Virus record (IMG/VR): IMGVR_UViG_3300021255_000060
Span: 62,961 to 126,960 of that record
DNA length: 64,000 nucleotides
Direction: 5' to 3' (one strand)
From: a virus
Lineage: Duplodnaviria; Heunggongvirae; Uroviricota; Caudoviricetes
Shown here: positions 11,861-59,478 of the stretch, in pieces
Numbering within the stretch: position 1 is the stretch's first letter
Layout: every line of letters begins with the position of its first letter
Notes under the pieces: generated by a model
The model's input: only the letters and a program-made list of their open reading frames with translations
The model's database searches: none
Told to the model about the DNA's origin: nothing
Translations under genes and position numbers: made by a program

Positions 11861-11863
11861 TGA

Positions 11864-12055
11864 CTAAATATTGGAATCTCCAGTTTCAGTGTCCTTAACA
11901 TCGCATTTTTGATAATCAACATATGGAGCTAATTGATAAATCTGAAATTGTCCTATTTTTGAACCTTTCAATTCATCAATAACCCTATCTACTTCTTGAA
12001 TAAATTTTTCTGCGTCTTCTACTTCAAATGCACCCTTAAATACTACTTGAAACAT
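11864..12055 (-). CDS. hypothetical protein
   Basis: 63-aa ORF. Confidence 0.25.
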   Translation of the reverse strand: MFQVVFKGAFEVEDAEKFIQEVDRVIDELKGSKIGQFQIYQLAPYVDYQKCDVKDTETGDSNI

Positions 12056-16582: not shown

Positions 16583-16732
16583 AGTTGAGGACTATTCAAT
16601 AAATTCCTTTTATAACATTCGTTCATTATTAAAAACGATACCACTGTTGGTAACGAATATATTATTACATATTCCATAATTTAGATAATTAAAGCCTCAG
16701 ATGCAAATTAGATAGCTTCTGAGGCGGTAGTG

Positions 16733-16803
16733 CGGGCTTGTAAAGACTCGAACTCTAACAAATGGTTTTGAAGACCATTGTCCTACCATTAAACGACAAG
16801 CCC
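16733..16803 (-). tRNA. suppressor-type tRNA with anticodon UCA (reads UGA; Trp-inserting by the paralogue evidence)
   Basis: Minus-strand sense GGGCTTG..AATGGTAGGAC.. anticodon stem ATGGT/ACCAT with loop CTTCAAA (U33, anticodon TCA, A37). T-arm TAGAG-TTCGAGT-CTTTA. Acceptor GGGCTTG/CAAGCCC. The D-arm is non-canonical. Confidence 0.5.
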
Positions 16804-20976: not shown

Positions 20977-20999
20977 AAACCTTAAATTTTTTAAATTTG

Positions 21000-21072
21000 T
21001 GATACTACCGGAATTAGAACCAGAGGCCCATACATTAAAAGTATATTGCTCTACCAACTGAGCTACAGGACC
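21000..21072 (-). tRNA. tRNA-Lys (UUU)-like, imperfect stems
   Basis: Sense GGTCCTG-TA-GCTCAGTTGGTAGAGC-A-ATATA-CTTTTAA-TGTAT.. The T-stem and acceptor carry G-U pairs and mismatches. Confidence 0.4.
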
Positions 21073-21077
21073 AATGG

Positions 21078-32969: not shown

Positions 32970-33542
32970 TTATATTTCATTTTCAAATCTAAAATTCATC
33001 ACCGCATCAGCAAGGTCGTTTCCGTCCGGGCAAAAAGCCATGAGCATGTGAGCAACAAGACCGGCAGACATCCCGCTATGCCCCTGGTCCATAAAAGCTT
33101 TGTAAGCTTTCCGAATCCGTTTATCATAGGACATGCTTTCGTCACGCATAATCTTGCAAAGGTCAAGAGTGTAATCCAGCTCCATTCCGTGATAGAGGTC
33201 TCCAAGGCGGATAGGGACAATTTTATCCCAATAGTCATACTGGTCTTCAAGGATTACACCACGGGCTCTCTCGCAATAGACAGGAACAAGGCTCGGAATG
33301 CTATCTTTATGCTCTTTTTCCTTACGTTCATATTCATCACGCCAATCCTGCACTTCCTTATCATACTGTCCCTTGGTCTTACCCATAATCTTCATATAGG
33401 CTTCATCAAGAGTGTCCGTAGAGAGGATTTCATGGCCGTTGAACTTACCAAAGCAAGTATCTTCGCATTCTGCGCTCTCTTTAAGGAGCCTCTTCCAAGC
33501 GCTGTCAATATTCTCGCCTGGATAAAATTCAATCTCTTTCAT
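32970..33542 (-). CDS. hypothetical protein (markedly GC-richer gene)
   Basis: 190-aa ORF. Local GC is visibly higher than the backbone. Confidence 0.35.
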   Translation of the reverse strand: MKEIEFYPGENIDSAWKRLLKESAECEDTCFGKFNGHEILSTDTLDEAYMKIMGKTKGQYDKEVQDWRDEYERKEKEHKDSIPSLVPVYCERARGVILEDQYDYWDKIVPIRLGDLYHGMELDYTLDLCKIMRDESMSYDKRIRKAYKAFMDQGHSGMSAGLVAHMLMAFCPDGNDLADAVMNFRFENEI

Positions 33543-33608
33543 ATTTATTCCTCCTTTTTTGCGTTATAAACATATCGCTACATAAATTTTCGTATCTCTT
33601 TCGTTAAA

Positions 33609-34001
33609 CTATTTCATATACGGGTCTTTACAACCAATCCATCCGCCAATTTCCTTATCATAGTGCGACCAGTCATTTCCGTTATAATTGGTCATGACAC
33701 CATTCACATAGGCCCTTATTCTCCACAATTTGATGATTCCCTTCTCAAACATATCCAGAAACATCTCCTTTTCTTTTTCACTGGCCAATTTGGTATAAAA
33801 TGTTCCCCAATCGCCATAACTTGATAATGAGAATCCATTCAGACCTTTTGCCTGATAACTACAATCAGAGAGCATTTCCGGTTCGTATCCGAGATTCCTT
33901 ACATAATCGTGATCACCTCCATTAGTGTTGTAATCAATGGTGTCACCTCGGTCAAAGGCGGCGTTAAATGGATATGGTAAACTATTCTCTTCTTTCTTCA
34001 T
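33609..34001 (-). CDS. hypothetical protein
   Basis: 130-aa ORF. Confidence 0.3.
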   Translation of the reverse strand: MKKEENSLPYPFNAAFDRGDTIDYNTNGGDHDYVRNLGYEPEMLSDCSYQAKGLNGFSLSSYGDWGTFYTKLASEKEKEMFLDMFEKGIIKLWRIRAYVNGVMTNYNGNDWSHYDKEIGGWIGCKDPYMK

Positions 34002-34158
34002 TTAATTAATTTTTATTTTTGAAAAAATACCACCACATAAATTCCTTTATATATCCATTATTAAACCACCAACATTTAAAATGGCGATACATGCCAAATT
34101 CTAACTTGCCGATTCTAAATGAAAAAAGTATATCTGCCATTATTCCTCCTTTCTTGTG

Positions 34159-34650
34159 TTAATCCATTGTCGCTTTTGGAAGACTATCATACCATTGCCT
34201 TGCGACATTGGGATATTGATAAAACATTCTCGCAGTGAAAGCCATAGTTGCTTTAATTGGAATATTATCTGGGTGATTATATCTTGCCTTCCAATCGTTC
34301 ATATTTTGGGTGAATTTCTCCAAATCCACCTCTGGCTGCTCCTGCTCTTTCTCACAAAACCCAGTGCATTCGTACACACCATTTTCATTTATCAAACTCC
34401 GCATACCGCCATGTGGATTATAGCAATAGTCATCATCTTTTCCATGATGGATGCATTTTGAACATATTTCTTCGGGCTGCTCCTGCTGGAGAGAGTTGAT
34501 GATTTGAAGAATACTCATATCCTCTCCATTTAAGTCTGACCATAATTGGTCTTGCCTATCAGACCTGTCTATGTTTTTCATCCATTCCTTTCGTTCCTTA
34601 ATTTGAACTTTTATAATGGATTTCAGTTTTTCTGCGTCAATATATCCCAT
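34159..34650 (-). CDS. hypothetical Cys/His-rich protein
   Basis: 163-aa ORF. Confidence 0.3.
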   Translation of the reverse strand: MGYIDAEKLKSIIKVQIKERKEWMKNIDRSDRQDQLWSDLNGEDMSILQIINSLQQEQPEEICSKCIHHGKDDDYCYNPHGGMRSLINENGVYECTGFCEKEQEQPEVDLEKFTQNMNDWKARYNHPDNIPIKATMAFTARMFYQYPNVARQWYDSLPKATMD

Positions 34651-34653
34651 AAT

Positions 34654-34944
34654 CTAAAAAATATCTTCATCTAAGTCAACTATTAAAGATGTCTGAGTTG
34701 TAAGACCTACTATCTCTTTCAGATCATTCTCAGTCTGATGGATATAACCTCTTGTAACTGACTGATAGCCTCCTACATAATAACTATTACCTTTCTTTCT
34801 CCACTCTTCTTCGACCATCTTCCAAGCTTCTTCCTTTGTTTCAGCTGATACAAGATAGTGAGGTGTACCTGCTCCCCAGGTTTGTATATGCCATACTTTC
34901 ATATCAAAGTTTATTAAAAAGGTGCGGCTCCGTATGCGTTGCAA
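34654..34944 (-). CDS. hypothetical protein
   Basis: 96-aa ORF. Confidence 0.3.
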   Translation of the reverse strand: MQRIRSRTFLINFDMKVWHIQTWGAGTPHYLVSAETKEEAWKMVEEEWRKKGNSYYVGGYQSVTRGYIHQTENDLKEIVGLTTQTSLIVDLDEDIF

Positions 34945-35358: not shown

Positions 35359-35691
35359 TTACAATTCTTGAATAAAAGTTCTATGATAAGTGTTAATACA
35401 ATCATTGGCTAATTTAAGAAGGTCGTTATAAAGGGATTCTAATGGTACTTGCTGCCTACAAGTCATAGGGACAGTTTCAAGGATATCTTTTAACCATTTC
35501 ATCTGCTCCTCGCTGGGTTTCCAATGAGATTGTCGTTCTTTTTGCCAGTTTGCAAAGTGATGAGCCGTTTTTTCAATGGTTTGTGTTATATCCTCCCAAT
35601 CAAATTCATCAAGTGTACCCTGTCCATTACCAAAGATTTCATTGAATAGTTCTTCCGTGTATCTTTTAATTTCTTCTTCCATATTTTTCAA
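35359..35691 (-). CDS. hypothetical protein
   Basis: 110-aa ORF. Confidence 0.3.
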   Translation of the reverse strand: MKNMEEEIKRYTEELFNEIFGNGQGTLDEFDWEDITQTIEKTAHHFANWQKERQSHWKPSEEQMKWLKDILETVPMTCRQQVPLESLYNDLLKLANDCINTYHRTFIQEL

Positions 35692-36586
35692 TGTATCTGA
35701 TTATCTTATTCCAATCATTCTCCTTAAAAGCCTTGTCTATATCCTCACATTCACCATTTGACAAACACATCTTCCCTTCCGGTCTATTCTCGTCAAGATA
35801 GTTCATAAACTTTATTGCAAGGTCGTGCTTGACGGACTGATAGATTTCTTGCTTTGGTTGTGGACGGAGGGATTTAAGAAAATACTGCAATTCCTTCTTA
35901 TACTCTTTGCTAAGTGTCATTGTTCCACCACTATAAGGGACGGCTGTACAATGTTCGATGATTTCAGAAATGTTATTTATTTTTTCTTCGTCCTCCTCGC
36001 TCCACTCTGTGAGCTTCATACCATCATCACCATTCCACGTTGCGGAATTAGGTTTTTCTTGTACGATCCCATTACAATTGGAGGCACGACAATAACCGAA
36101 TCTAGAACGGATTATATCCAATTGCCCCCTTTCTGTAGATGTAAGTGTATTATTTGTGATTATGGCTTTATTCAAAAGGGCTACATCAGTTTTTGTAGGT
36201 TTCCAACAAAGTTTCTGCTCTTTCTTCAACATCTCATCCACCTCATCAGAGACTCTCTTCATTATCTTCGGGTCACAGTTCTCTACACATTTATCAAAAA
36301 GAGCATTACGCTTGGTGTAGTTTGGCTCTTTCTGCTTTTCGAGGTAGGCAATCCATCTATCTATCATTGGTTGAGCATAATCGCCATCACTTTTCCCAAC
36401 AAGACCAAGATAATTGATAATCTCTTTTCTTATTCTCTCGTCCTCACTCTCAGCAAGCTGTGGAAAGATAAATTCAGCTATGTCTTTCGGAGAATCATCA
36501 ACACTATGTCCCCAAGTACCAGAGGCCCATTCTTTACATCTCTCCAAAGCTTCATCATAAGCTCTTGCTTTTTCTTCTATATTCAT
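35666..36586 (-). CDS. hypothetical protein
   Basis: 306-aa ORF. Confidence 0.35.
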   Translation of the reverse strand: MNIEEKARAYDEALERCKEWASGTWGHSVDDSPKDIAEFIFPQLAESEDERIRKEIINYLGLVGKSDGDYAQPMIDRWIAYLEKQKEPNYTKRNALFDKCVENCDPKIMKRVSDEVDEMLKKEQKLCWKPTKTDVALLNKAIITNNTLTSTERGQLDIIRSRFGYCRASNCNGIVQEKPNSATWNGDDGMKLTEWSEEDEEKINNISEIIEHCTAVPYSGGTMTLSKEYKKELQYFLKSLRPQPKQEIYQSVKHDLAIKFMNYLDENRPEGKMCLSNGECEDIDKAFKENDWNKIIRYIEKYGRRN

Positions 36587-36588
36587 AT

Positions 36589-37056
36589 CTAAATTAAATA
36601 TTCAAGACAATAATAAAGGGCACCATCTACAGCTTGTTCATATGTTGCATATTCAGAATCACTTAGTTGAAAGTCTCTATAATAAATGATGTCTCTATTC
36701 GCATTTCCTTCATCGTCATATGCTATACCTTCAACTGGAAATTTTTTAGGTTTACCGTTCTTTCCAAGACAATATATCTTATAGCAATATGATTTAGAAG
36801 TACATTCATAATTATAGTCAATTACTACTAGAATAGAATGTACTTCTCTAAGTCATTTCATTGCCATTTGAAGAGTTGGAGCGGAACATTCATTCTTGTA
36901 ATCAGTAAAAAGAGTTTCACCTTTATTCCAATTACATGCACATCCCTGTGCTCTTACAAGTTTTCCATTAACATATAGATAATCACATTCTGCATCAAAT
37001 CCTTTTTCTTTCAAAAATTTTGCTGCCTCGTAGGAAACATAATCTTCGGTTATCAT
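36589..37056 (-). CDS. hypothetical protein, paralogue A (in-frame TGA at 36853-36855)
   Basis: ORF 36853..37056 continues through TGA: ..LQMAMK[TGA]LREVHSIL... Ends at TAG 36589-36591. The N-terminus MITEDYVSYEAAKFLKEKGF matches paralogue B. Confidence 0.45.
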
Positions 37057-37732: not shown

Positions 37733-38089
37733 CTATTCATCTACAAAATCCTCAAAATCGTATGGATTGTCATCCAGCGAACGTTGCCTGAACGTTCTGC
37801 ATAACTTCTCCCTATCCATCCCATCGTAAAAACTATAAGTTCTGAAACTATCCATCAGTTCTTCATATGACACCCCTTTCAATCCGCCATTTCCAACGGC
37901 TGACCTATAGTCATTGTATTCCTTGTATAATACCCATTCGTAGACGTTATATTCAGGAACACACAGCCAATAGGCATAGGGTTCATCGTTGAAATATAAA
38001 TTTGTAGCATCAAAGTATTGAGGACACAGCGTTTCAAATCTATCTATCATACATTCCTTCAGGTGCTTCAATGGCAAGTCCCTTCTCAA
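37733..38089 (-). CDS. hypothetical protein
   Basis: 118-aa ORF. Confidence 0.3.
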   Translation of the reverse strand: MRRDLPLKHLKECMIDRFETLCPQYFDATNLYFNDEPYAYWLCVPEYNVYEWVLYKEYNDYRSAVGNGGLKGVSYEELMDSFRTYSFYDGMDREKLCRTFRQRSLDDNPYDFEDFVDE

Positions 38090-38435
38090 TTAAACCACGG
38101 AAGTCAAAATGATGAGAAAGAAGCCAATCAAACATATTCAGTTCATTTGCAAGATTGCACATCATTGGTTGAAAATCAGGATGCAGTTCATATACACAAT
38201 GACATGCTTGAAATTCTTTCTTCTCTTCCTCCGTCATACTTGACATCGGGCGAAGATAAGGCTTAAACGAACTATCTCCTGTTGAGTATAGCGACAAATA
38301 TAATTCATCATACAGCCTACCATCAAGTTCCCTATCAAATGGTACATTACCCTTCCACTGATATAATCCTATAACAAGGTAAGGCAACCTTGCACAAAGG
38401 TCCTTCAATAATAGTTGCTTTTCTTTCTGTGTCAT
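38040..38435 (-). CDS. hypothetical protein
   Basis: 131-aa ORF. Confidence 0.3.
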   Translation of the reverse strand: MTQKEKQLLLKDLCARLPYLVIGLYQWKGNVPFDRELDGRLYDELYLSLYSTGDSSFKPYLRPMSSMTEEEKKEFQACHCVYELHPDFQPMMCNLANELNMFDWLLSHHFDFRGLIEKGLAIEAPEGMYDR

Positions 38436-42904: not shown

Positions 42905-42975
42905 ACCCTATTTTTTGATTCACCTGTGAACCTTTTTGAGTCATCTATGACCCCTTTTGATTCATCTGTGATTCA
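42905..42975. repeat. iteron-like tandem direct repeats, set 1 (about 20 nt x3)
   Basis: TCACCTGTGAACCTTTTTGA / TCATCTATGACCCCTTTTGA / TCATCTGTGATTCAAAAG. Confidence 0.5.
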
Positions 42976-43079
42976 AAAGTTGCAAAAATTTGCAACAAAA
43001 TTTTTTTATGACCCAATGGCGAAGCCATTAAGTATAGTTCCTTTTATTTATTTTATATAGTTCGTGTCCTTTTTTGGCG

Positions 43080-43150
43080 CGAACCTATACCGTTTTTGTC
43101 GTCAACCTATGTCATTTTTGTCGTCAACCTATACCGTTTTTGTCGCGGCA
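43080..43150. repeat. iteron-like tandem direct repeats, set 2 (22 nt x3)
   Basis: AACCTATACCGTTTTTGTCGTC / AACCTATGTCATTTTTGTCGTC / AACCTATACCGTTTTTGTCGCG. Confidence 0.55.
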
Positions 43151-43227
43151 GTCCAATTTTTCAAAACTGGTGTAAAATTTGGACATGTTATTTTTTATTA
43201 TTATATTTGTAAAAATAAAAATAATGT

Positions 43228-43962
43228 ATGGAAGAACAAAAAACTAAACAACATGTACAAGTACCAAATCCAAAACAAAACGATGGTACTAAACTTAAAT
43301 CAATTGATTATCTTATATATGCAAATATAAGACGCTTTATGAATAAAGAAACGATGTCTTGCTATCCATCAATAGATACAATTGCATCCGTATCTAATTG
43401 TAATAGGAAAACTGTAATGGCATCGATTAAGAGATTAGAAGAATTGAATATGCTAACTACAATTAAAAGAAAAGGGGCTTCTACTATTTATAAGTTTGAT
43501 AAATTGAATAAATTTGAAATGTTTACTCCAGAATTCTTAGATAATGAAGATATGACTCCTGAAGAAAAAGCATATCTAATTGGATTGCAATCACAATCTT
43601 ATAAAAATGAGGATTATGCTGTAACTACATATAGTAATACAGAATTATCTGAAAATTTAAACATTCCTATTAGAAATATTCAAAGATACAATAAGTCTCT
43701 TAAAGAAAAAGAAATTATGATGGAAATAGATACGCAAATCAAAGATGAAGCTGGATTTAATGTACCTGCTAAAGCTGTAGATTTGCATAAGATTGGGCAA
43801 GCAATTCTCTTTATAAGTAAAAGAGTAGATGATCATGAAGATCGTATTACCAGATTAGAGAAAATGATAGATCTTCTTAGTAAAGAAAATAAATCTCTTA
43901 AAAAAGAAAATGAACTTCTTAAAACATCTAAAACTGTAGAACCAATCAACATTGATTTCTAA
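43228..43962 (+). CDS. replication initiator / replisome-organiser-like protein (N-terminal winged-HTH) with a C-terminal coiled coil
   Basis: ETMSCYPSIDTIASVSNCNRKTVMASIKRLEELNMLTT is typical of the DnaD / phage replication-O / RepA HTH. Preceded by two iteron arrays. Intact ORF with no TGA. Confidence 0.45.
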   Translation: MEEQKTKQHVQVPNPKQNDGTKLKSIDYLIYANIRRFMNKETMSCYPSIDTIASVSNCNRKTVMASIKRLEELNMLTTIKRKGASTIYKFDKLNKFEMFTPEFLDNEDMTPEEKAYLIGLQSQSYKNEDYAVTTYSNTELSENLNIPIRNIQRYNKSLKEKEIMMEIDTQIKDEAGFNVPAKAVDLHKIGQAILFISKRVDDHEDRITRLEKMIDLLSKENKSLKKENELLKTSKTVEPINIDF

Positions 43963-43971
43963 AAAAATAAT

Positions 43972-44005
43972 CCCCAGCGACCTTCACAGGTGGCCGGGGA
44001 TTTTT
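43972..44005 (+). terminator. rho-independent terminator
   Basis: AATCCCCAGCGACC..GGTGGCCGGGGATTTTTAATT directly after the stop codon. Confidence 0.45.
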
Positions 44006-45100
44006 AATTATTGAGTCCGCAAAAACTAATATTTCATTTTAATGGATTACGGACATCCTTTGCACTTTTATATGGAAACTAACAAAATCTTTCAGTCTCA
44101 ATGAAACTGCAACACTTAGTACTCGATAGCCGATTCAAACAGCTGTTTCCGACTGGAGAAGTCGATGTCCTAGATCGCTAGACGAATCGAGCATATTTTA
44201 TCACTTGGTATCTTTGTCAAGATCCATAATGTGTTTGGATACAACATGCCCATATGAAATGACATGCGAATAATTTCGATTTACAGTCTGTTTGTAAACC
44301 GGATTTGGATTGAATTGTTTGGTTGTTTTCTTGAGTCCCATATAAATTTTGATTTGGATTTTTCTCTTTATCTGTTGCCCTGAGCGTAGCGAAGGGCTTA
44401 TATAAAAACTGGAGAACACACTAAACTCCAGTTATATACACTCTGAAAACCACTACCTATGACAAAGAACGCTGTGTGTTTTTACTTTGCACCTGGGCAA
44501 ACGATCAAGTTCACCCAGGCATAACTACTACTAACCGGATTGGAGGACTCCCTAGAGATAACAGAGCCGTATGTTATCAATCCTTGAACTCGTTTCACCT
44601 TAAACTGTCTAGGGACAGGCGTACAACCAGTTCTATTGTACGACTACGGAATAGTTTTATCACCGTTTATGCCACTCCCAACGACCCTGGCTTTGTATGG
44701 ATCTTACAAACTCTTTACTATGTCCATCAGTTCATAAAGAGCGGGTGACCAGTCCATCAAAAAACACAAGACGCGACCCTTGTGTAGTCAAGATTTTAAA
44801 AACCATATGGGCAGTTCATTCTCCTTATATGAACTGGTGTTCCCTTAAATCTTGGATAATGGAGTTACCCTATTTAGTACTAAATTAAGGAGTAGTACCA
44901 TCTCCTATTGACCTTATGCAGGTATTATAAGCCCTCCGGTTTCTAAATAAATGTCTCATCTTTAAATGAGACCCATGATGAAATACTTGTCATCTATTAG
45001 ATGGAGAACTCAAAATCCAGTACAAGTATTCCATTTGTTGGCATTTTTAATTCGGAGGGTACCGGCATTGGATAGTAAATAATCACCGTACAAGCGACCT
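44006..45100. other. 1.1-kb ORF-free convergent intergenic region rich in hairpins (candidate ncRNA or cis element)
   Basis: Hairpins GCCCTGAGCGTAGCGAAGGGC, CTGGAG..CTCCAG, CCTGGGCAAACGATCAAGTTCACCCAGG, GTACAACCAGTTCTATTGTAC and TCTCATCTTTAAATGAGA. Only short spurious ORFs. Confidence 0.3.
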
Positions 45101-45118
45101 CATACGGTGATTATAAAA

Positions 45119-45688
45119 CTATTCGGTAGGTCCAACATACTCGCTGATGAGGACAACTTTTTGCTTCTTTACAGCGGGTTCACTTACCTGCTTGCCATCT
45201 TTGATTACAGGGTTACCTGCATCATCGAATACATCGGTATAGATTCGATTCCCATCAGCATCAAATGCAGGAACATCGATTTCGATAGTACCAGCACCAG
45301 TGATTTCACCGACAGCAGCAAGAGCCTTCAGGCGAGCGAGATTGTTACCAAGGTCATACCAGGTAGGATTCACAGGCGTGTTGTTAGCATCACGCTTTGA
45401 AAGTGCAGGCAGACCGAACCAAGTAGCCTTCTTACGGCCATTGTATTCGGATTCACATTTCACAATGTGATAGCCAGCCTTCTGACCTTTACGAACTGCG
45501 ACCCATTCAACTTCCATGTCCTCGAATTTAGGGAACCGAAGGGTCTCACCTTCACGAATAGTGTAAGTGTCAAAATTTACACCATCATTCTGCAGGGCAT
45601 TAAGGTTAGTGACGCGTTTGTGCTCACGTGCATTCTGCCCAGTAGTGCCAAAGATAGGCACCTCAACGTTAATCTTTTCAATATTCAT
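45119..45688 (-). CDS. hypothetical protein (first gene of the GC-rich island)
   Basis: 189-aa intact ORF ending TAG. Preceded 3' by the hairpin ACCGTACAAGCGACCTCATACGGT. Confidence 0.35.
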   Translation of the reverse strand: MNIEKINVEVPIFGTTGQNAREHKRVTNLNALQNDGVNFDTYTIREGETLRFPKFEDMEVEWVAVRKGQKAGYHIVKCESEYNGRKKATWFGLPALSKRDANNTPVNPTWYDLGNNLARLKALAAVGEITGAGTIEIDVPAFDADGNRIYTDVFDDAGNPVIKDGKQVSEPAVKKQKVVLISEYVGPTE

Positions 45689-45778
45689 ATTCTTTAATTG
45701 AGCATTTAGTTGCTCTTCCAGTATGGGTGCTTGGTCTTAGTTAAATTAAGAAAAAAATAAGGGTAGCCGAAGCCACCC

Positions 45779-46003
45779 TTACTTGATAAGACGGAGAGAG
45801 AACAACTCTCCATCCTTGCAAACAAACCAGCGATAGTGCCATCTTTGGATGAAACCCTCGCTGTTCTCAATAGTAGAACCATCCTCCATTGCTAGAAGAT
45901 CCTCGTTGTCTTCCTCACGGATAGCATAAGTAGGCACATCAAACGTGTCTCCGTCCACAGTAATCATGAACGGAGACATCTTGATGTCAGTAGTGTACCG
46001 CAT
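45779..46003 (-). CDS. hypothetical protein (GC-rich island)
   Basis: 74-aa ORF. Confidence 0.25.
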   Translation of the reverse strand: MRYTTDIKMSPFMITVDGDTFDVPTYAIREEDNEDLLAMEDGSTIENSEGFIQRWHYRWFVCKDGELFSLRLIK

Positions 46004-46533
46004 TACTCCGGATTGACAGAGATTGCGGCAATAAAGATTTTGCGAAGGCGGTCAGTACGATGAACCTTGCCCTCAGAATCTGTCTCAAAGACAGGCTGAT
46101 GGGCCTCGAAGAGGTCATCACACTTGATACTTCCAATCTGGCAGAGCTTGATGAAGCGCTGCAGATCAGTTGCCATCATCGCCAACTCGCAATTGAGCGG
46201 CCGAACAGACTCATCATAGAAGGAGTCAAGTTCTCCTTCTCCTGACGGAATTCTGCGGAATGTAGAGATAGGGATCTCCACAAACCGCTTTCTCTGGACA
46301 GAATAGCCAGAGATGTACAGGACTTCTGCTCCTTTGAATTCCTTCACGAACGGAAAAGCCTCCTCCTCTTTAGGGAAGATGATTTCCTCGTCCTTCCGGA
46401 ATGAGAAGGCGAGTCCACGGCCTTCGCCAAGTTTTGCAATCTTGGCGTTCTTCTTTGCATCAGCAAGAGACACGCCCTTGTTGTTGCGAATCTGGTTCTC
46501 CTTCGAAAAGGAGATTTCACTACGATTGATCAT
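46003..46533 (-). CDS. hypothetical protein (GC-rich island)
   Basis: 176-aa ORF ending TAA. Confidence 0.3.
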   Translation of the reverse strand: MINRSEISFSKENQIRNNKGVSLADAKKNAKIAKLGEGRGLAFSFRKDEEIIFPKEEEAFPFVKEFKGAEVLYISGYSVQRKRFVEIPISTFRRIPSGEGELDSFYDESVRPLNCELAMMATDLQRFIKLCQIGSIKCDDLFEAHQPVFETDSEGKVHRTDRLRKIFIAAISVNPE

Positions 46534-46597
46534 GTTGCGATGTGTTTATTGAACCTTGTAAACTCCTATCAAGAGAATCTAAGCAAACCTGTTAAGA

Positions 46598-46855
46598 CTA
46601 GATGGCTTGACCATTGCAGTCAAACATCTTCTTCTTGAAGCCAAAATCCCAGACGATCTTGGCAACAACGATCCAGTTACGGCCAATGCCGCGAGAATCG
46701 AGTCTCTCAACAATTTGGAAATCCGCATCCGGATGTTCCGTCATGTAGAGAAGATTCTCGTTGGTGATGAACGCGTGTTCACCATTGCACAGGCGAACAA
46801 CGAAGGAGCAGCGGCATGCGCGCTCAACTTTAAAAGGAAGGTTGTAATTGAACAT
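46598..46855 (-). CDS. hypothetical protein (GC-rich island)
   Basis: 85-aa ORF. Confidence 0.25.
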   Translation of the reverse strand: MFNYNLPFKVERACRCSFVVRLCNGEHAFITNENLLYMTEHPDADFQIVERLDSRGIGRNWIVVAKIVWDFGFKKKMFDCNGQAI

Positions 46856-47039
46856 CGTTAGATAGTTTTGTGGTTGAACATTTTCCCAGTGATCTCCGAA
46901 TGACGGAAATCGTTAGGACTTGAATAATTTGTCTTGCGAAGGCTCATGAAGATGCCTTCTTTGCGCATGTCGCGCATTGCAGCCTTATAGGCCGCATTGG
47001 TGGATTTTGTGTGCATAATATAAGTAAATAATGGTTGAG

Positions 47040-47107
47040 AGTCCTACCGCAGAATCGAACTGCGGTTTACTCCAAGGAGCTGTTCTAGCCATCTGAACTA
47101 GTAGGAC
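47040..47107 (-). ncRNA. tRNA-like element lacking a normal anticodon arm
   Basis: Acceptor GTCCTAC/GTAGGAC. D-arm GTTC-AGATGGCTA-GAAC. T-arm CGCAG-TTCGATT-CTGCG. Only a short GCTCC-TTG-GAGT hairpin sits where the anticodon arm should be. Confidence 0.3.
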
Positions 47108-47138
47108 TTACAGATCTTCAGTTTGAAGAGGTTTCAAG

Positions 47139-47456
47139 CTAATAATAACTTGGTTTAAACTCTTCTCTGAACTGGAGATTTATGCGGAATTCGTCATATT
47201 CCAGGAGTTTTACTCCAAATACATAACGATGACTAACTGTCTCCGCAGGATTCTCCACAGACATTAATATTGATCCACAAATGGCATCAATACTATTAAT
47301 CTTAACAGATTTCCAATCCATCATTGAAGTGATGGCATTCTCGATATCAGGAAGCATATCCTGAAGAATCTGTTTTCTCTGTTCAAGCAGAGCTTTAATC
47401 TGCTTTTGCGTGTCTTTAAATTCTAAGACTTTTGTTGAATACGGCATATTTAGCAA
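47139..47456 (-). CDS. hypothetical protein (GC-rich island)
   Basis: 105-aa ORF. Confidence 0.25.
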   Translation of the reverse strand: MLNMPYSTKVLEFKDTQKQIKALLEQRKQILQDMLPDIENAITSMMDWKSVKINSIDAICGSILMSVENPAETVSHRYVFGVKLLEYDEFRINLQFREEFKPSYY

Positions 47457-47779
47457 ATATTAAACGATTCGACATCATAGAATGCGTGATGATAAGGTTC
47501 ACACGAAACATTGAAGTTTCGCATGATTTCTTTATTATCGCATACATAATCAGGACCAAGAATTACTTTAAGTTTCTTGTGGATGGCATCATACTCAACA
47601 GCACGAATGTCGTTTGAGTATCGGATAGACACATAACCTCTCGAATCATGTATCTCAAAACGAAGTTCACTTATCATGGTTGTATTCAACTGCACGGTTA
47701 TACAAGTATTGCAAATCTTTACCCTCACGAACCCATCCCATTGAAATAGGATACCAAGCCGTTTCCCATTTCTTAGCAA
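47450..47779 (-). CDS. hypothetical protein (GC-rich island; true start may be the internal Met near 47680)
   Basis: 109-aa ORF that overlaps the next gene by 113 nt. Confidence 0.25.
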   Translation of the reverse strand: MLRNGKRLGILFQWDGFVRVKICNTCITVQLNTTMISELRFEIHDSRGYVSIRYSNDIRAVEYDAIHKKLKVILGPDYVCDNKEIMRNFNVSCEPYHHAFYDVESFNIC

Positions 47780-48011
47780 AATCAGGATGCTCTTTAATAG
47801 TTTTCTCTAAATAGAGATACATATAAGCGCATTCGTGATCATAGAGAGTTTTACTAGCAGTAAGTACTGTTTCAAGTGCTTTCTGCAGTTCTTTTGCCGA
47901 ATCGCCAGCAGAATGGCGGCCACGATTACTGAAACCGTTCTTATTAATCCAGTCTTGTATTTCGTACAGACGATTAATAATTGATTCAGGAGTGAAGATC
48001 TGTGTTTTCAT
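47667..48011 (-). CDS. hypothetical protein (GC-rich island), ORF ends at TGA
   Basis: 114-aa ORF. Confidence 0.3.
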   Translation of the reverse strand: MKTQIFTPESIINRLYEIQDWINKNGFSNRGRHSAGDSAKELQKALETVLTASKTLYDHECAYMYLYLEKTIKEHPDFAKKWETAWYPISMGWVREGKDLQYLYNRAVEYNHDK

Positions 48012-48316
48012 TAGAATCGCATTTTAAGTGTTGCACGTTCCTCCTCAAGATAGGTAATGAATTTCTCCTCTACCTTATCCAGAGTATTTCTACACAAAGG
48101 TCCGTTCCAATGATAACTTCCATCAGAATTGACTACGATTGAAGCACCGACATAGCCGATAATAGTATACTGCTTGCGGTTTCTTGCCATCCACTCACAG
48201 ATGGCGTTAACGAGTTCTTCACGCTCTACTTCGAAAGCACGAAGATCCATCTCCAGACCCTTGATCTGAGTCTGGAGATTCTTAATAGTTTGAATGTTAT
48301 TTTTCATATATCCCAA
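48011..48316 (-). CDS. hypothetical coiled-coil protein (GC-rich island)
   Basis: 101-aa ORF. Confidence 0.3.
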   Translation of the reverse strand: MGYMKNNIQTIKNLQTQIKGLEMDLRAFEVEREELVNAICEWMARNRKQYTIIGYVGASIVVNSDGSYHWNGPLCRNTLDKVEEKFITYLEEERATLKMRF

Positions 48317-48552
48317 TAATTATCAGGTATTTCAGAACTTTCAAGTAATTCATACTCAATGTCGCTTTTCAGTTTCTTGAGCATGCTGAGAAGAGCTTCG
48401 CATTCAGCAATTGCATTTCTGCACTGCTTATATGCTCCGCAGAGGTCAGTGCGAGGTTCGCACTCAAGAGACTTGATCACATCTTCGGTGATAAGTCTCT
48501 GATCGGATAGAGTTAATTGTTTCATATTATATGAATTTGGTTTGGCACCCAC
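48304..48552 (-). CDS. hypothetical protein (GC-rich island)
   Basis: 82-aa ORF. Confidence 0.25.
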   Translation of the reverse strand: MGAKPNSYNMKQLTLSDQRLITEDVIKSLECEPRTDLCGAYKQCRNAIAECEALLSMLKKLKSDIEYELLESSEIPDNYWDI

Positions 48553-48604
48553 TCAACCCCATCAGGATTATTACATAGAATTCTACTAAAGTGGGTAAAC
48601 TACA

Positions 48605-48877
48605 TCAGACTCCGAGAGCCTGGAAGATGTTAGCGCATGACTCAGAAGCCATGGGGACAATCCTCTTGCTTCTGAGAGTTGCACGAATTGCAATCATTCT
48701 CTCCAGCTCTTTGGAGAGAAGTTCAATTCTTGTAAAGTTCTTGAACCCATACTGATAGGTCAGAACTTTAACATTGATCTGCTCAGGCTTGAGCTGAGCC
48801 TTCTCACGCATCCTAACGTAAGCGGCTGCAATGAGAACGATGCGTTTTCTCATCTCGCTGTTCTTAACGTGGCACAT
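48605..48877 (-). CDS. hypothetical protein (GC-rich island)
   Basis: 90-aa ORF. Confidence 0.25.
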   Translation of the reverse strand: MCHVKNSEMRKRIVLIAAAYVRMREKAQLKPEQINVKVLTYQYGFKNFTRIELLSKELERMIAIRATLRSKRIVPMASESCANIFQALGV

Positions 48878-49085
48878 AGTCTTAAGCCTTGTTAGAAGTT
48901 AATAATGTAACAGACCCTGCAAGAATGCAAGTAAAGAGGATTACTCCGAAGAATCCAAAGATCTTCAGAAGATACAGACCGAGTGCAGCAATAGCGCAGA
49001 CTCCAAAGAGTCCCAGGATTAATCCCAGGACTCCGAAGATACAAAATAAAAGATCTTTCATGATAAAACGTCTTTAAGAGAAGCC

Positions 49086-49457
49086 TTATCCATTGGGATT
49101 GATACCTTTAATATAATCATCATAAGCATCACTGTACTCTTCCATATGCTGTCTCCAGCTAGGAAGGATTTCAGGAACATCCACGAAGAACATCTGTTTG
49201 ATATCTTCACGAATCTGGAAATCATTGAAACTAGAGAGACACGCAATCTCAAGATACTCCTTGACAGGAGCGACTTGCATTACGTATGCCTCAGCATCAA
49301 TAATGTTGATCCAGCCTGCTTTGTCGTCGGCCAAGCGAGCCCCAATGAAGTAATCTTCGCACTGATTGAATGCGTTGATCACCTCAATGTAGGCATCGAA
49401 CGTGCTGTTGAAGACCCTATCGGTTTCTCCATCAGCAAATACGAATTTAAATGTCAT
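49086..49457 (-). CDS. hypothetical protein (GC-rich island)
   Basis: 123-aa ORF. Confidence 0.3.
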   Translation of the reverse strand: MTFKFVFADGETDRVFNSTFDAYIEVINAFNQCEDYFIGARLADDKAGWINIIDAEAYVMQVAPVKEYLEIACLSSFNDFQIREDIKQMFFVDVPEILPSWRQHMEEYSDAYDDYIKGINPNG

Positions 49458-49542
49458 AGCGTGGTTGCTATTTAGTACTCAAGGCATGACTCGAACATGC
49501 TGATCTCCTATCGGATTCCTCCTTGATACATGAGTATTCCTA

Positions 49543-49770
49543 CTAGTAGCAAATCGCAGTGTCCCCCTCGAGATAATCAATCTCGTAATCGTTGTCATTA
49601 GCAACGTAATTCATGAACATGAGCATAGACATGCCAGCTCTGTTTACGTACGTTTTGACAACGTTATCGTTGACTACCAGGTTAACTGCCGGTTCGCCCT
49701 CGTAGACGGTTCCAACAAGCTCTACCATAATAGACCATGTTGCGGCTGTATCAGTACTCTTATTCTGCAC
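49543..49770 (-). CDS. hypothetical protein (GC-rich island)
   Basis: 75-aa ORF. Confidence 0.25.
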   Translation of the reverse strand: MQNKSTDTAATWSIMVELVGTVYEGEPAVNLVVNDNVVKTYVNRAGMSMLMFMNYVANDNDYEIDYLEGDTAICY

Positions 49771-49822
49771 AATACAGCCTTACCTATGCAGAATAAGTTT
49801 TGGACTATTGAAAGATTGATAC

Positions 49823-50173
49823 CTATTTGAGATACCAATCTTTCACTTTGAACTGCCGACCACTATACCAGCGGTCGCAGATATCCCGAACTTCAGGATA
49901 ATTCATGCCAGTCTCCAGGAGACAAACACGATTATCCTTAAATCCTCGACAATAATCATCGAGGATTTTGGAATCGGTCCATCCAGAACAGTATCCTCCT
50001 AAGAGGTAACTAGTCTCTTCGGAGATTAGCTCAACGTCATCTATTGTGACGTTGTAATAATCTGCGAGGATGCAGATTATATTCTCCTTGGGGATTATGT
50101 CACCTTTGCTTGTTCTCTCGGCAATAACACCGAGAATTACTTCAAAGTTGTTGATAGCAAAATACTTTGCCAT
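49823..50173 (-). CDS. hypothetical protein (GC-rich island), preceded by leader repeat A
   Basis: 116-aa ORF. Confidence 0.3.
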   Translation of the reverse strand: MAKYFAINNFEVILGVIAERTSKGDIIPKENIICILADYYNVTIDDVELISEETSYLLGGYCSGWTDSKILDDYCRGFKDNRVCLLETGMNYPEVRDICDRWYSGRQFKVKDWYLK

Positions 50174-50350
50174 AACATTTTACTAGCCAGGCCTAGATTT
50201 ATTGCGATCCTGGAAGGACACGAATTATCAGTACTTAATGGATCATGCCGCACACCTACCTTGTAGGCGGGTCCCCATCGTTCCACGACTCTTCGTGGTT
50301 TGCCAGAAGCAAAACGCCTTATTATAATGGAAAAGGCTCCTGGCTAGTGC
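50174..50350 (-). promoter_or_regulatory. about 180-nt conserved structured leader, copy A
   Basis: Starts immediately upstream of the ATG at 50173. ACTAGCCAGG ... CCTGGCTAGT form a long-range inverted repeat enclosing CCACGAC..TTATAATGGAA. Homologous to copy B. Confidence 0.4.
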
Positions 50351-50556
50351 TTTACTCAAGCAGAGACGATCCTTATATAGATCGAGAGATTACAGCCTCT
50401 GTCGCAGCTGAGCCGCTCCATGTTTGGAGAACATAGACCCCAATGCAGGAATCGGACCTGCCAACATATAATGTTGCCACTTAAAGGGGTTTGGACATTT
50501 CTATACGCTTAGATTCACCTACGAGCAAAGCTATGAACTCTTGTAGGTGTAAAATG

Positions 50557-50781
50557 TTATTTAGGTAAGCGATATCTCCGCATTCTGCGAAGGTACGCTG
50601 TGAACAGTGTACCACCCTTGCGAGTACGTAAGGGCATTTGAGCCCTCATAGCCAAAGGGTCCACATTATTCACCTTGCGGTGAAGTCTAGCTCTTCGCAG
50701 AGCTTCTTCGAACCTTGAACGGAGACAACCGTCTCCGTTGATGATGTCGTTGACATTGATAATGATGTTTTTGTACATCAT
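50557..50781 (-). CDS. hypothetical basic protein, preceded by leader repeat B
   Basis: 74-aa ORF. Confidence 0.25.
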   Translation of the reverse strand: MMYKNIIINVNDIINGDGCLRSRFEEALRRARLHRKVNNVDPLAMRAQMPLRTRKGGTLFTAYLRRMRRYRLPK

Positions 50782-50960
50782 AGTGCTTTACTAGCCAGGT
50801 CTAGATTCATTAAAGCCCTGGGAAATCACAACTCATCAGTACTAAACGGATCTTGGCTCACGCTTACTATTATTCAGCGGCTCCCCGTTATTCCACGACT
50901 TGTTGTGACGCCAAAAGGCAAACAGCCATTGTTATAATGGAATGCCTTTTGGCTAGTTTG
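50782..50960 (-). promoter_or_regulatory. about 180-nt conserved structured leader, copy B
   Basis: TTTACTAGCCAGGTCTAGATTCATT...CCACGACTTGTTGTGACG...TTATAATGGAATGCCTTTTGGCTAGTTTG, collinear with copy A. Confidence 0.4.
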
Positions 50961-51160
50961 ATCAGCTTTCACGTGGCTGCTGTGCTGATCAGTTACCCTT
51001 GTAGCTCAAGGTACCATATCAGTTGACCCTACCCGGGCCTCGTTGGAATTCAAAACGAATTTCCCATTGGAGGTGGGGAGGGGTCGTTGTGTATGATACT
51101 CCTATCATCCCCGCAATATACACAAATTCCGTAATTTCAACATCTCAGCTCTCTTTTATA

Positions 51161-51197
51161 TGTTTTTGAAATTTTCAAAAATTTTCTTATATTCGCA
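51161..51197 (+). promoter_or_regulatory. Bacteroidetes-type promoter (TTTG -33 element, then TAnnTTTG-like -7 element TTATATTCG)
   Basis: TTTTTGAAATTTTCAAAAATTTTCTTATATTCGCA lies about 22 nt before the ATG at 51219. The same motif recurs at 52647-52680. Confidence 0.4.
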
Positions 51198-51218
51198 CAA
51201 AACTAAAACAATAATATT

Positions 51219-52097
51219 ATGAAAATTAAAAAATATCAAAATGGAAGTAAAGTACAAGAATTTGTAATAAACAAAATAAAGAATACTTTAAAAGACGAAG
51301 ATAAAACACAAAGAATTTTAGATTTTGCCAGAAATCATCCAAAACTAGTAAATTGAGTAATGCCGGAAATAAGAAGAAGGCTTTACGACTACGTTGATCC
51401 ATACGGATACGATGATTTTGGGTCAAGAATTAATACAGCACTATCTGGTAATCAGGGAGAGTACCCAATGCATCTACATGGTAGAGATGATATTTTTGCA
51501 GAATATTTGGGAATTCCAAAAGATAAAAGACACAATTATGAAGATTCTATCAAAGTAATACCTTCTAAATATAGACCTACAAAAGGAGATGATCCAAATT
51601 CAAATTACAAAGCGTTGGATATTGATGATAATACAAAATTTAATCTGATATTTGATGCTTTGTATGATGGAAGAACAAATAAACTTTCTCGAAATAATAG
51701 CAGTTTAACTGACTTATTATCTACTCATACTATTGGAACAGGATTTGATGATAAAGGTCAGTATGTTTCGTATTATGATTTATGAGACATTAACCCAAAA
51801 GTTGGGGAAAGTGCGGTAGATCTTAACAATAGTCCAGAAGAAAAAACAATTAACAAAATAATTGGAAATAATAAAAAAGATGTATCTCTTGGAATAGGGA
51901 AGCCCGTAGAATTTTACGATCGAATATATCTCAATGATTACTTTAATGTAACTCCAGAAGTAGAAAAAAATGCATATTATGGAGGATACATTCGTCCTGC
52001 ATTTTTAGAAGATAGTAGAAAATACAATTCTCCAATTACTGGAGATGAATACTATCAATCAGAAGGTTCTATTCCAATAGTTAAAAATTTAAGATAG
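51219..52097 (+). CDS. hypothetical late protein (2 in-frame TGA)
   Basis: ORF 51360..51785 is in frame with the ATG at 51219 (..PKLVN[W]VMPEIRRR..). It continues through TGA to TAG 52095-52097. 292 aa. Confidence 0.45.
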
Positions 52098-58032: not shown

Positions 58033-59478
58033 TTATGCAGTTTCAACTGTCCAACCAGTAGGAATACCATTAGCACCAGTTACATCCCATGTAGCTTCGG
58101 AGTTCTTGACGAACGTACCAGTTGCAGATACGTTTGCCAGCCAATTGTTTGTATATGAAGTCCCAGGCGTTGTTGTAAAAGCACACTTAACAAAGCTGAG
58201 GTTGGCACAATCACTGAACATGAATTCGTAGCACTTATTTGCCAAAGTTATAGCAGGAAGCTCTGGAGCAGTAGTGAGACCGGTGCAGCGATCGAACATG
58301 TGGGCATAGCAAAAACTACTTAAAGTAGTAGCAGGAAGTTCCGGAGCTGTAATCAGATTTGTGCAATGATAGAACATTTCTTTGTAACAATTATCAGTTA
58401 ATGTAGTAGCAGGAAGTTCCGGAGCAACTGTTAATGATGTACAATTTCTGAACATAGATGAGTAACAATATTCAGCTAACGTAGTAGCCGGAAGTTCTGG
58501 AGCATTGGTTAAACTAGTGCAACTGCTAAACATGTTGCTGTAGCAGCTATGTGCAAGTATAGTAGCAGGTAATTCAGGTGTAGTAATTAAACTAGTGCAA
58601 CCGCCAAACATGTTGCTGTAGCAACCCTCAGCCAAAGTAGTTGCAGGAAGTTCTGGAGCAATGGTAATGCTGGTACAATCATTGAACATGGAGCTGTAGC
58701 ACGAAATTGCTAGCGAAGTCGCAGGAAGTTTAGGCGCAATATTTAAATATTTGCAACTACGGAACATACCACAATAACAACTGTTTGCTAGCGTAGTGGC
58801 TGGTAGCTCAGGGGCGATGGTTAACCCAGTGCAACCAGAGAACATGTATGCGTAGCAAGACTTAGCTAGCGTAGTAGCTGGTATAAGTAATTTCTTTATT
58901 GGATGAGAAAATAACGAATGTTCGTTTGTCCACTCATAATTATCGTAATTTTCGAATAAAGAAGGGAATGCATATTCCGGCACTTCTTTCATAGATGCAA
59001 AATTCTCCTTACTTAATAAACTCATTATGTTACCATAAACATAAGTTTCACCAACAATCTGAAATGAACCAGCGCTACAAAAATCATCTTCGCCCATCCC
59101 CATCCCATTAGGATTATTTCCACGAACCAACGCTTTCTGACCCATATTCAGAGTTGCAATAGGAGTATTATTACCTTCGTCGTAATTCTCAGATGTAAAT
59201 TCAGTCCAAGTCTCACCATTATCCGTGCTAACCTCTATCGTCCTTGTCTGTGACTCTGCATCATACGCCAAAAAGTAAATCTCAGTGTTATCTGCTTTTG
59301 CTTCAAATGTAAGCGGAATATTGATATCAACAGCATCTGATTGATTACTTTTCTCCAATATATAAGGAAAATGTGCGTATTCAAATCAAAGATCTTTATC
59401 ATTCGCAAACTTTCCTTGTTTTTCAATAGGTATATTCAAATTTACTATTGCGTCATATAATGTTTTATAATCTGTCAT
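58033..59478 (-). CDS. tail fibre / receptor-binding protein with BspA-type leucine-rich repeats (about 11 tandem 23-aa repeats)
   Basis: Repeats LPATTLAxxCYSxMFxxCTSLTxAPE (LRR_5/BspA-like, Cys-containing). The listed ORF starts at a TTG. Extending upstream through one TGA reaches the ATG at 59478 (MTDYKTLYDAIVNLNIPIEKQGKFANDKDL[W]FEYAHFPYILEKSNQ..). Confidence 0.55.

Follow-up and report, generated by a model that had tools for sequence, protein, structure and literature searches.

Introduction

Recoded gut phages are thought to use their genetic code as a timer, with early genes translated by the standard code (Borges et al., bioRxiv 10.1101/2021.08.26.457843), and the genes of the phase in which only the host machinery acts have so far been inferred solely from missing in-frame stops. 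Partial recoding has already been described for such phages in the same study, and the related literature also includes Yutin et al. 2021 (PMC7886860) and work on zeta crAss-like phages (PMC12386605). Here we analyzed a stretch of 64,000 nucleotides (nt) from a virus of the Caudoviricetes (positions 62,961 to 126,960 of IMG/VR record IMGVR_UViG_3300021255_000060), referred to below as the window, and in particular a block of small genes at 44.2-51.1 kilobases (kb), the island, which is richer in guanine and cytosine (GC) than the backbone around it. A sequence-only reading of the window had described this region as a gene island with standard stop usage embedded in a genome in which TGA is recoded.

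The genome resembles recoded gut phages in being AT-rich, in having TGA partly recoded, probably to tryptophan, in carrying an opal suppressor transfer RNA (tRNA), and in having most of its recoding in late genes. It also shares with them a subset of genes without in-frame TGA, presumed to be translated before the code switch. It differs in that the unrecoded part is split between a 31-kb AT-rich block tuned to the phage tRNAs and the separate 7-kb island, in that the island has its own composition, codon usage, RNA structure, and boundary motif, and in that replication genes (primase, helicases, and family-B DNA polymerase, PolB) are recoded too.

A second point of comparison is the crAss-like phage phi14:2, in which a virion RNA polymerase transcribes the early genes and two long intergenic regions among these genes give rise to highly abundant RNAs from the earliest time point (bioRxiv 10.1101/2020.03.07.982082). 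The island, too, brings together small genes of unknown function at the start of a transcription unit, with long intergenic stretches between the first genes. Late phage genes can also depend on phage tRNAs (PMC12482277), and a partition of codon usage between early and late genes is attributed to Mioduser et al. 2017 (PMC5683454) as that work is cited in PMC12482277. As in such phages, codon usage here differs by expression class, and the bulk and late genes match the phage's own tRNA pool. The difference in this genome is extreme, however (GC content at third codon positions, GC3, of 0.46 vs 0.16; CCA at 2% vs 54% of proline codons), and it is confined to one contiguous, sharply bounded block that is conserved across the clade and coupled to a difference in genetic code.

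Hypervariable accessory or anti-defence loci of phages consist of small ORFan genes in one orientation that undergo cassette replacement between conserved flanks. The island has the same type of genes, cassette swaps between close relatives, and conserved flanks, and adds to these conserved RNA elements and a distinct composition. The principle that early genes are compatible with the standard code while bulk and late genes match the phage tRNAs is known. In the literature on recoded and crAss-like phages that we searched, we found no description of a clade-wide compositional island with a boundary motif, and in the literature searched none of an operon-wide excess of RNA structure, of leader RNAs such as those reported here, or of a comparable pair of paralogs of unknown fold.

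The locus is a sharper marker of the host-only phase, differing in composition, in codon choice relative to the phage tRNAs, in stop usage, and in RNA folding, and its boundary motif lends itself to searches of metagenomes. Should the block indeed be the first to be expressed, it would pinpoint candidate takeover or counter-defence genes of an uncultured crAss-like group with genomes of ~170 kb, and would yield RNA elements open to testing together with a conserved pair of proteins whose fold is unknown. It also offers a natural case in which to ask whether translational or RNA-structure selection can hold synonymous composition 30 GC3 points off the genomic equilibrium.

A GC-rich gene block without in-frame TGA

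The window has a GC content of ~30% overall, with most 1-kb bins at ~0.27-0.33, and the bins between 44001 and 51000 reach 0.37-0.47, in agreement with the GC enrichment reported by the sequence-only reading. That reading placed the island at 45119-50960. An island is present there, but the unit is larger, running from a conserved motif at 51020-51131 to a gene for tRNA-Glu(CUC) at 44119-44192 (~7 kb). GC3 is 0.32-0.60 in the island genes (0.46 when pooled) and 0.16-0.17 in the backbone, and the island genes show a codon-position periodicity of GC1 > GC3 > GC2. Sixteen minus-strand genes tile 45119-50781. The nearly gap-free tiling noted earlier, which needs no TGA read-through, was borne out: standard-code open reading frames (ORFs) on this one strand cover 94% of the interval, whereas 300 first-order Markov shuffles averaged 47% and never exceeded 71%. 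The island lies at a sign change of GC skew in the window. We infer that the block is one leftward (minus-strand) transcription unit extending from 51131 to 44119. A scan for sigma-70-type promoters was uninformative (29 sites vs 25 expected), and inspection by eye revealed no clear Bacteroidetes-type -33/-7 promoter upstream of the motif at the island head.

The 16 island genes (1575 codons) contain 21 TGG codons and not a single in-frame TGA. The clearly recoded genes of the window carry ~12 TGA per 1000 codons (53 TGA in 4388 codons, summed by hand from per-gene counts), a rate at which about 19 would be expected in the island. As had been claimed, TGA is the stop codon of the genes that end at 47667, 48304, and 48605, and the one at 48304 overlaps the start codon of the following gene as ATGA. 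To compare the island with its relatives, we fetched their DNA around nine homologue places, which gave loci L002-L011 (W denotes the locus in the window); TGA stops and ATGA overlaps also occur in L003 and L004. The frequency of TGA stops in the island (3/16) is not significantly in excess of that in the TGA-free block (4/52; Fisher p=0.34), two of the four in the block being in fact recoded codons within longer genes.

Translations in the window read as a primase, DnaB-like and SNF2-like helicases, PolB, and a GroEL-like chaperonin. Among GenBank phages, PolB is closest to uncultured crAss-like phages (cr52_1, cr56_1, and others), with 47-49% identity over the full length, and by these Crassvirales-type replication genes the phage is Crassvirales-related. 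The lineage is one of AT-rich crAss-like phages of roughly 170 kb. ARAGORN detected 18 tRNA genes in the window, one of which (16732-16803) has the anticodon UCA and is an opal suppressor, and long ORFs double in length once TGA is opened as a sense codon. The replication genes at 0.3-11.7 kb and the late/structural side at 51.2-64 kb carry 1-11 in-frame TGA per gene and few TGG (9 TGA in PolB; 4-6 each in the primase, DnaB-like, and SNF2-like genes; 1-6 each in the late genes at 51.2-64 kb), TGG being rare in TGA-recoded genes. The minus-strand block at 11.8-42.7 kb, where the tRNA array lies, has essentially no in-frame TGA and does use TGG. Because the per-gene map of TGA shows three regimes (the recoded flanks, this 31-kb block, and the island), the genome is only partly recoded; that TGA is read as tryptophan is suggested by the restoration of ORFs. 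The earlier picture of a standard-code island in a recoded genome is therefore right about the island itself and overstates the contrast, since the 31-kb neighbor is TGA-free as well. Its lack of in-frame TGA therefore does not set the island apart. What is specific to it is its composition, the avoidance of A-ending codons read by phage tRNAs, the excess of predicted RNA structure, and the new structured leaders.

A few details of these regimes merit mention. The gene for the GroEL-like chaperonin (13591-15180, minus strand) has a single in-frame TGA at about one quarter of its length and is the one gene of the otherwise TGA-free block that would need the suppressor. In PolB (7139-9025, minus strand), the ninth TGA lies two codons ahead of the TAG stop, which leaves the C-terminus ambiguous (TGA as stop or as tryptophan). 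A tRNA with the anticodon UUA at 20999-21073 (minus strand; ARAGORN, and Rfam tRNA at 42.6 bits) would suppress ochre (TAA) stops, yet TAA serves as a stop in this genome far more often than any other codon, and the tRNA may be inactive, mis-called, or weakly reading.

Codon usage relative to the phage tRNAs

As a baseline for codon usage we took same-strand, TGA-free genes of the backbone, that is, those of the AT-rich TGA-free block. CCA accounts for 0.02 of proline codons in the island and 0.52 in the block (0.54 in a 13-gene same-strand subset), and ATA for 0.08 of isoleucine codons compared with 0.28 (0.27 in the same subset). The corresponding shares are 0.10 and 0.39 for TTA (leucine), 0.23 and 0.63 for AGA (arginine), and 0.26 and 0.70 for CAA (glutamine). 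The A-ending codons that phage tRNAs read by Watson-Crick pairing are thus avoided in the island. Of all codons in the island, 0.245 are cognate to a phage tRNA, compared with 0.34 for the TGA-free block and 0.39 for the recoded genes. Within four-fold families, the ratio NNA/(NNA+NNT) is 0.32 in the island vs 0.48 (p=3e-8), and it shifts in the same direction in L003, L004, L005, and L007 (p=9e-3 to 3e-4). The codon shift is more than an effect of GC content, because the preference between NNA and NNT changes too (e.g., from CCA to CCT). Among glutamate codons, GAG has a share of 52% in the island and 11% in the backbone.

Predicted RNA structure and non-coding elements

Folding of the transcribed strand was scanned in 300-nt segments, each compared with exact dinucleotide shuffles. 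The mean z-score is -4.1 in the island and -1.45 in the rest of the window (Mann-Whitney p=2e-9), and an offset set of segments gave -3.9 and -1.25, respectively. Outside the island, z is independent of GC (r=0.15), and the GC-rich segments there have z of about -0.7 to -1.0. The folding excess extends into coding segments. It recurs in the islands of L003, L004, L005, and L007, which have z of -2.5 to -3.7 vs -1.2 to -1.7 in their flanks (p=0.04 to 6e-4).

Two long, near-perfect minus-strand hairpins lie inside coding sequence, one at 45946-45978 (14 base pairs, bp) in a gene for a 74-amino-acid (aa) protein and the other at 50016-50070 (arms of 24 nt) in the ORF at 49823-50173. They explain the most extreme folding values (z of about -8).

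All non-coding elements of the island are on the minus strand. Motif 1 (51020-51131), a conserved element ~110 nt long that heads the island at its 5' end, has the core AGTATCATAYACARYGACCCC ... GGGAAAU ... CCGGGGTAGGGTC. Strong copies are present in 12 loci (W, L005, L007, L011-L015, L017, L018, L022, and L023; nhmmer E=1e-27 to 1e-33), and identity to W is 70-89% in L005, L007, L011, and eight metagenome loci of the Joint Genome Institute (JGI). These strong copies sit exactly at the jump in GC content, from ~28% to 40-50%. Near the head of the island, L004, L009, and L010 carry weak copies (nhmmer E=1e-6 to 1e-9), and the nhmmer profile search found no copy in L003. The core pattern has 12 matches in JGI metagenomes, four of which (L016 and L019-L021) are chance seed matches in GC-rich contigs, and it has no match in the viral contig collection. 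Neither RNAalifold nor a pairwise covariation scan gave convincing helices, with mostly invariant positions or G-U changes, so we describe motif 1 only as a conserved element.

The duplicated structured leaders reported by the sequence-only reading are real. Leader copy B (50783-50960) is structured (fold z=-3.1), with its end 5-6 nt upstream of the ATG at 50781, and leader copy A, including a 5' hairpin element (50176-50399), ends 5 nt before the ATG at 50173. The two copies are 74% identical, and further members of this family are found at 2288-2468 in L015 and 7319-7499 in L009. In the alignment of the four copies, 12 of the 24 predicted pairs are maintained via changes on both sides. Motif 2 (50501-50560), a conserved hairpin element that starts directly after the stop codon of the first island gene, consists of a 7-bp stem (CACCTAC/GTAGGTG) with a 20-nt loop, followed by AATCTAAGC. 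Its stem covaries in three lineages, reading CACCCAC/GTGGGTG in L005 and CACCATC/GATGGTG in L007, and nhmmer also detects the element in L013 and L014.

At the other end of the island, a structured untranslated tail of 926 nt (44193-45118) holds several hairpin/T-run elements, including terminator-like hairpins at 44953-44972 and 44764-44785. With a fold z of -6.3, it justifies the earlier description of a structured non-coding stretch, although that stretch also contains the overlooked tRNA-Glu(CUC), which is co-oriented with the island and forms its 3' end (ARAGORN). The first ~60-160 nt of the tail are conserved in L003, L004, L009, and L010, the segment 44542-44803 is 94% identical to L013, and the matching non-coding tails of L005, L007, L010, and L011 fold with z=-2.8 to -7.7. 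The tRNA-Glu(CUC) is conserved in L003 and L005, with similar sequence in L004 and L010. In L003, it is present as a tandem duplicate (11803-11878 and 11883-11956). A search of 43900-51400 on both strands against Rfam 15 gave no match up to E=1 for the leaders, motif 1, motif 2, or the tail, and a search at gathering thresholds returned tRNAs only, with nothing in the island.

Island genes and proteins

The first gene of the island, downstream of leader copy B, encodes a 74-aa arginine-rich ORFan (50557-50781, minus strand, stop TAA) without a match in Pfam or PHROGs, and in the close relative L013 it is swapped for other sequence. The variable part of the island follows leader copy A and comprises 12 small minus-strand genes delimited by ORF tiling, stop codons, and GC3 (46598-50173). 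In order of transcription these lie at 49823-50173, 49543-49770, 49086-49457, 48882-49061, 48605-48877, 48304-48525, 48011-48307, 47667-48011, 47450-47677, 47139-47447, 46858-47016, and 46598-46855. None of the 12 has a Pfam or PHROGs match, and the ORF at 49823-50173 has only two homologues among 5.8 billion proteins. Several of these genes have syntenic homologues in relatives: the gene at 49086 corresponds to those at 6384 in L005 and 7006 in L011, the genes at 47139 and 46598 to those at 7381 and 8892 in L005, and the gene at 49543 to that at 5066 in L007.

The island ends with two core genes on the same strand, encoding proteins of 176 aa (46003-46533) and 189 aa (45119-45688), the latter of which anchors the island in all relatives. 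Between them lies a gene for a 74-aa protein (45779-46003), which overlaps the upstream gene through a TAATG and is followed by a terminator-like hairpin at 45755-45784 (terminator scan); this gene is conserved in L003 and L004. The 189-aa protein has 44 homologues with 41-90% identity on contigs of up to 177 kb, and the 176-aa protein has 18, with 54-87% identity in L003, L004, L005, and L007/L008. The two families are paralogs (hhalign probability 95%, E=3e-8). AlphaFold2 models both with high confidence (mean predicted local distance difference test scores, pLDDT, of 90 for the 176-aa and 88 for the 189-aa protein) and with the same order of secondary-structure elements, and the core proteins gave no significant fold match, apart from a weak hint at an OB-fold/SSB-like structure. 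An exhaustive profile search retrieved 78 cluster representatives, 160-220 aa in length, and no annotated relatives. The profile of the 189-aa family (the 176-aa paralog was not scanned) had no match in 185,579 bacterial and archaeal genomes, one per species, and a tblastn search of GenBank phages with the 189-aa protein found none either. Searches of all 16 island proteins against Pfam and PHROGs gave nothing but one sub-threshold match to SKA2.

Among 43 remote members of the 189-aa family, Pfam and PHROGs gave only isolated matches to single members. We treated those to RHS and TIR as spurious because they probably derive from a 1777-aa protein (P0100) that matches the family via a short repeated stretch. 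In L009, the 189-aa homologue is annotated as a 293-aa protein (10001-10882), with the region of the 74-aa spacer gene apparently fused or read through.

Conservation, mosaicism, and the neighboring Rep-like gene

At least ten related phage contigs carry the island, and where complete they measure 166-177 kb. Each of L002-L011 has a stretch of 3.5-7 kb with ~40-50% GC in a background of ~30% (weaker, at 38-43%, in L010), and a GC island is also present at L012-L015, L017, L018, and L022. In L002-L011, the island terminates with the 176-/189-aa pair, and in most of them a non-coding tail comes next. Late genes across from the island are TGA-recoded in L003, L004, and L005, and for several of the other island genes the order is preserved among their homologues in L005, L007, and L011.

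Comparison of the core genes of W with those of L004, L005, or L007 gave an identity of 33-47% at third codon positions and 62-94% at first and second positions. Their GC3 is nevertheless 0.41-0.60 in each lineage, compared with 0.14-0.22 in neighboring genes. The composition is therefore a maintained equilibrium and not the leftover of a donor, as GC3 has remained high despite the divergence of third positions. Taken together, the comparison suggests that the island is an ancestral module kept by selection rather than an insert. At the same time, its content is mosaic. Positions 44961-46533 are 85% identical to L003 at the nucleotide level, while backbone proteins of the two are only 25-55% identical, and in the close relative L013 blocks of 89-94% identity alternate with replaced blocks, the core genes being a divergent allele. 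Given these mosaic comparisons and the scarcity of homologues of the ORF at 49823-50173, the island is best described as a conserved framework in which recombination exchanges cassettes and even the core. A megablast search of 43-52 kb against GenBank phages gave no match, and scans of viral contigs with the Rep-like protein described below and with the first late protein yielded no useful relatives. No flanking or att-like direct repeats were found at the island, and no island ORF has a Pfam or PHROGs match indicating an integrase, transposase, or replication initiator.

Beside the island and outside it lies a plus-strand module of the backbone (42913-43962), which consists of iterons and a Rep-like gene. 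The sequence-only reading had noted both. The gene (43228-43962) matches Pfam HTH_36 (E=1e-14) and has a GC3 of 0.16, and the iterons of 21-22 nt form two sets of three (42913-42971 and 43071-43145). An HTH_36 Rep-like gene also comes after the island in L004, L005, and L009, so that it lies downstream of the island tail there as in W, and it is found upstream of motif 1 in L007 (3886-4614, 67% identical to W) and L012 (7798-8712). Judging from these contigs, the putative origin module and the island are always neighbors, with their order rearranged. The Rep-like genes of L004 (11312-12022) and L005 (11989-12708) have three in-frame TGA and no TGG, and the one in the window has neither codon, which suggests that recoding has spread to the Rep-like gene in some lineages only.

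Interpretation

We favor the view, with a probability of roughly 0.5, that the island is an early or accessory operon for host takeover or counter-defence, translated with host machinery before the phage tRNAs and the opal suppressor act. Its genes would be tuned to the unmodified translation apparatus of the host and would act in the first moments of infection, when the phage tRNA array and the opal suppressor have yet to build up, or in any other state in which these are not expressed; their products would take over the host or counter its defences. The remainder of the genome would be tuned to the tRNAs supplied by the phage, and part of it to TGA read as tryptophan, and the RNA structure and leaders would probably stabilize or process the transcript or control its translation. 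We favor this explanation because of the standard stops, the codon shift off the phage tRNAs, the position at the head of a divergent transcription unit, the mosaic ORFan content, and the closest precedent, the abundant early non-coding RNAs of phi14:2. An early or anti-defence region expressed before the suppressor tRNA was also among the proposals of the sequence-only reading. It is compatible with all findings, although the anti-defence part has gained no match to a known family.

Several observations weigh against an early operon. The 31-kb neighboring block is also without in-frame TGA and yet keeps AT-rich codons matched to the phage tRNAs, so compatibility with the code does not by itself explain the GC shift. 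GAG is the most enriched codon of the island and its reader, tRNA-Glu(CUC), sits at the island's own 3' end; with this tRNA attached, the island is not fully independent of the phage tRNAs. The early region of phi14:2 has a GC content of 25-33%, and a GC-rich early region is thus not a general trait of crAss-like phages. In Pfam and PHROGs, the island proteins show no match to families known for anti-defence or takeover functions (no curated anti-defence library was compared). The folding z-scores are predictions, and the antisense strand of the island is structured too (z=-2.9, compared with -3.9 for the sense strand), so the hairpins may have a role at the DNA level. Finally, the early timing is deduced from position, code, and codon usage only, and the codon usage of the island is presumed to be host-like.

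A more far-reaching version, which we hold only tentatively, is that one genome combines two translation regimes, the island being a selected, GC-rich, standard-code, structured operon with new RNA elements and a new takeover pair. The ~110-nt boundary motif and the ~180-220-nt leaders would then be a new class of cis-regulatory or protective RNAs that, for example, resist host or phage RNases or control translation in hosts without Shine-Dalgarno use. The paralog pair, for which no relatives by fold were detected, would represent a previously unknown factor in host takeover.

Three alternatives are less well supported than an early operon. The composition might reflect gene flux rather than translation timing if the island were continually re-imported from a shared mobile pool of accessory genes, partly from GC-richer phages. 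The mosaic content, the replacement of cassettes between close relatives, the core module with 85% nucleotide identity to L003 against 25-55% for backbone proteins, and the existence of other, smaller GC-richer patches (e.g., 32970-34902 and 37733-38435) would all fit such a pool. We nonetheless consider it unlikely. Across the clade, the core genes are widespread by vertical descent (amino-acid identity as low as 41-55%), with GC3 of 0.41-0.60 in every lineage at a third-position identity of 0.33-0.47, the non-coding head and tail are GC-rich and conserved as well, the codon shift includes GC-neutral changes (CCA to CCT), and no donor is apparent, the 189-aa family being without a homologue in bacterial genomes or GenBank phages. 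A module for an episomal or carrier state, expressed together with the Rep-like gene and iterons while the TGA-recoded lytic genes are silent for want of the suppressor, appears less probable still. It would account for the constant presence of the HTH_36 Rep-like gene and iterons on either side of the island, and the standard-code compatibility fits a model of the code as a switch (bioRxiv 10.1101/2021.08.26.457843); crAss-like phages are moreover described as persisting long-term without lysogeny (PMC8375218). However, the composition of the Rep-like gene is that of the backbone, and its three in-frame TGA in L004 and L005 mean that the suppressor would be needed there, and the island has no partition, toxin-antitoxin, or repressor domain in Pfam or PHROGs.

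Phage N4 uses hairpin promoters for its injected virion RNA polymerase, and hairpins and GC content could similarly act on the DNA template here, either in the recognition or entry of a virion RNA polymerase or in the initiation of replication by the origin. The folding excess on both strands (sense -3.9, antisense -2.9) and the position of the island next to the iteron/Rep region and the change in sign of GC skew are in line with this, as is the assay of the phi14:2 virion polymerase on denatured DNA (bioRxiv 10.1101/2020.03.07.982082). Sense-strand folding is stronger than antisense folding, though, the leader helices have RNA-type G-U pairs and end precisely at start codons, and selection on codon usage would be left unexplained, all of which makes a template-level role improbable. 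It is even harder to regard the locus as mostly non-coding, a set of structured RNAs with ORFs produced by chance because higher GC entails fewer stops. Strong folding within ORFs and the abundance of ORFans would agree with that idea, but the ORF coverage of 94% exceeds the shuffled maximum of 71%, the genes show the GC1 > GC3 > GC2 periodicity, homologues occur in the same order in relatives with substitutions mainly at third positions, and both core proteins have confident AlphaFold2 models. Least probable of all is a recently acquired foreign cassette or a plasmid- or satellite-like insert specific to this genome, both of which had been proposed from the sequence. GC content above the backbone and sharp boundaries would be expected of such an insert. 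The island, however, has the same place, composition, and partly kept gene order in every related contig examined, and this conservation of synteny and composition, which the sequence-only reading had itself named as grounds for rejection, refutes a recent acquisition; so does the high GC3 of core genes whose third positions have strongly diverged. The island has no integrase, no att-like direct repeats, and no replication, integration, or packaging gene of its own, and the 189-aa family was not found in the scan of 185,579 bacterial and archaeal genomes. The Rep-like gene does not rescue a plasmid-like origin, as its GC3 of 0.16 is that of the backbone and it uses TGA as a sense codon in L004 and L005.

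Other features of the window

The TGA-free block contains minus-strand patches of intermediate GC content at 28295-30121, 32970-34902, 35666-36676, and 37733-38435 (GC3 0.27-0.47), which have no excess of RNA folding and a codon usage between those of the island and the backbone (CCA at 0.37 of proline codons). Within the late TGA-recoded block, and on the opposite strand, lies a gene with a GC content of 0.39 (58033-59478, minus strand), which encodes a 481-aa protein made of leucine-rich-repeat-like units of ~22 residues (CYxxMFxxCTSLTxAPELPATTLA).

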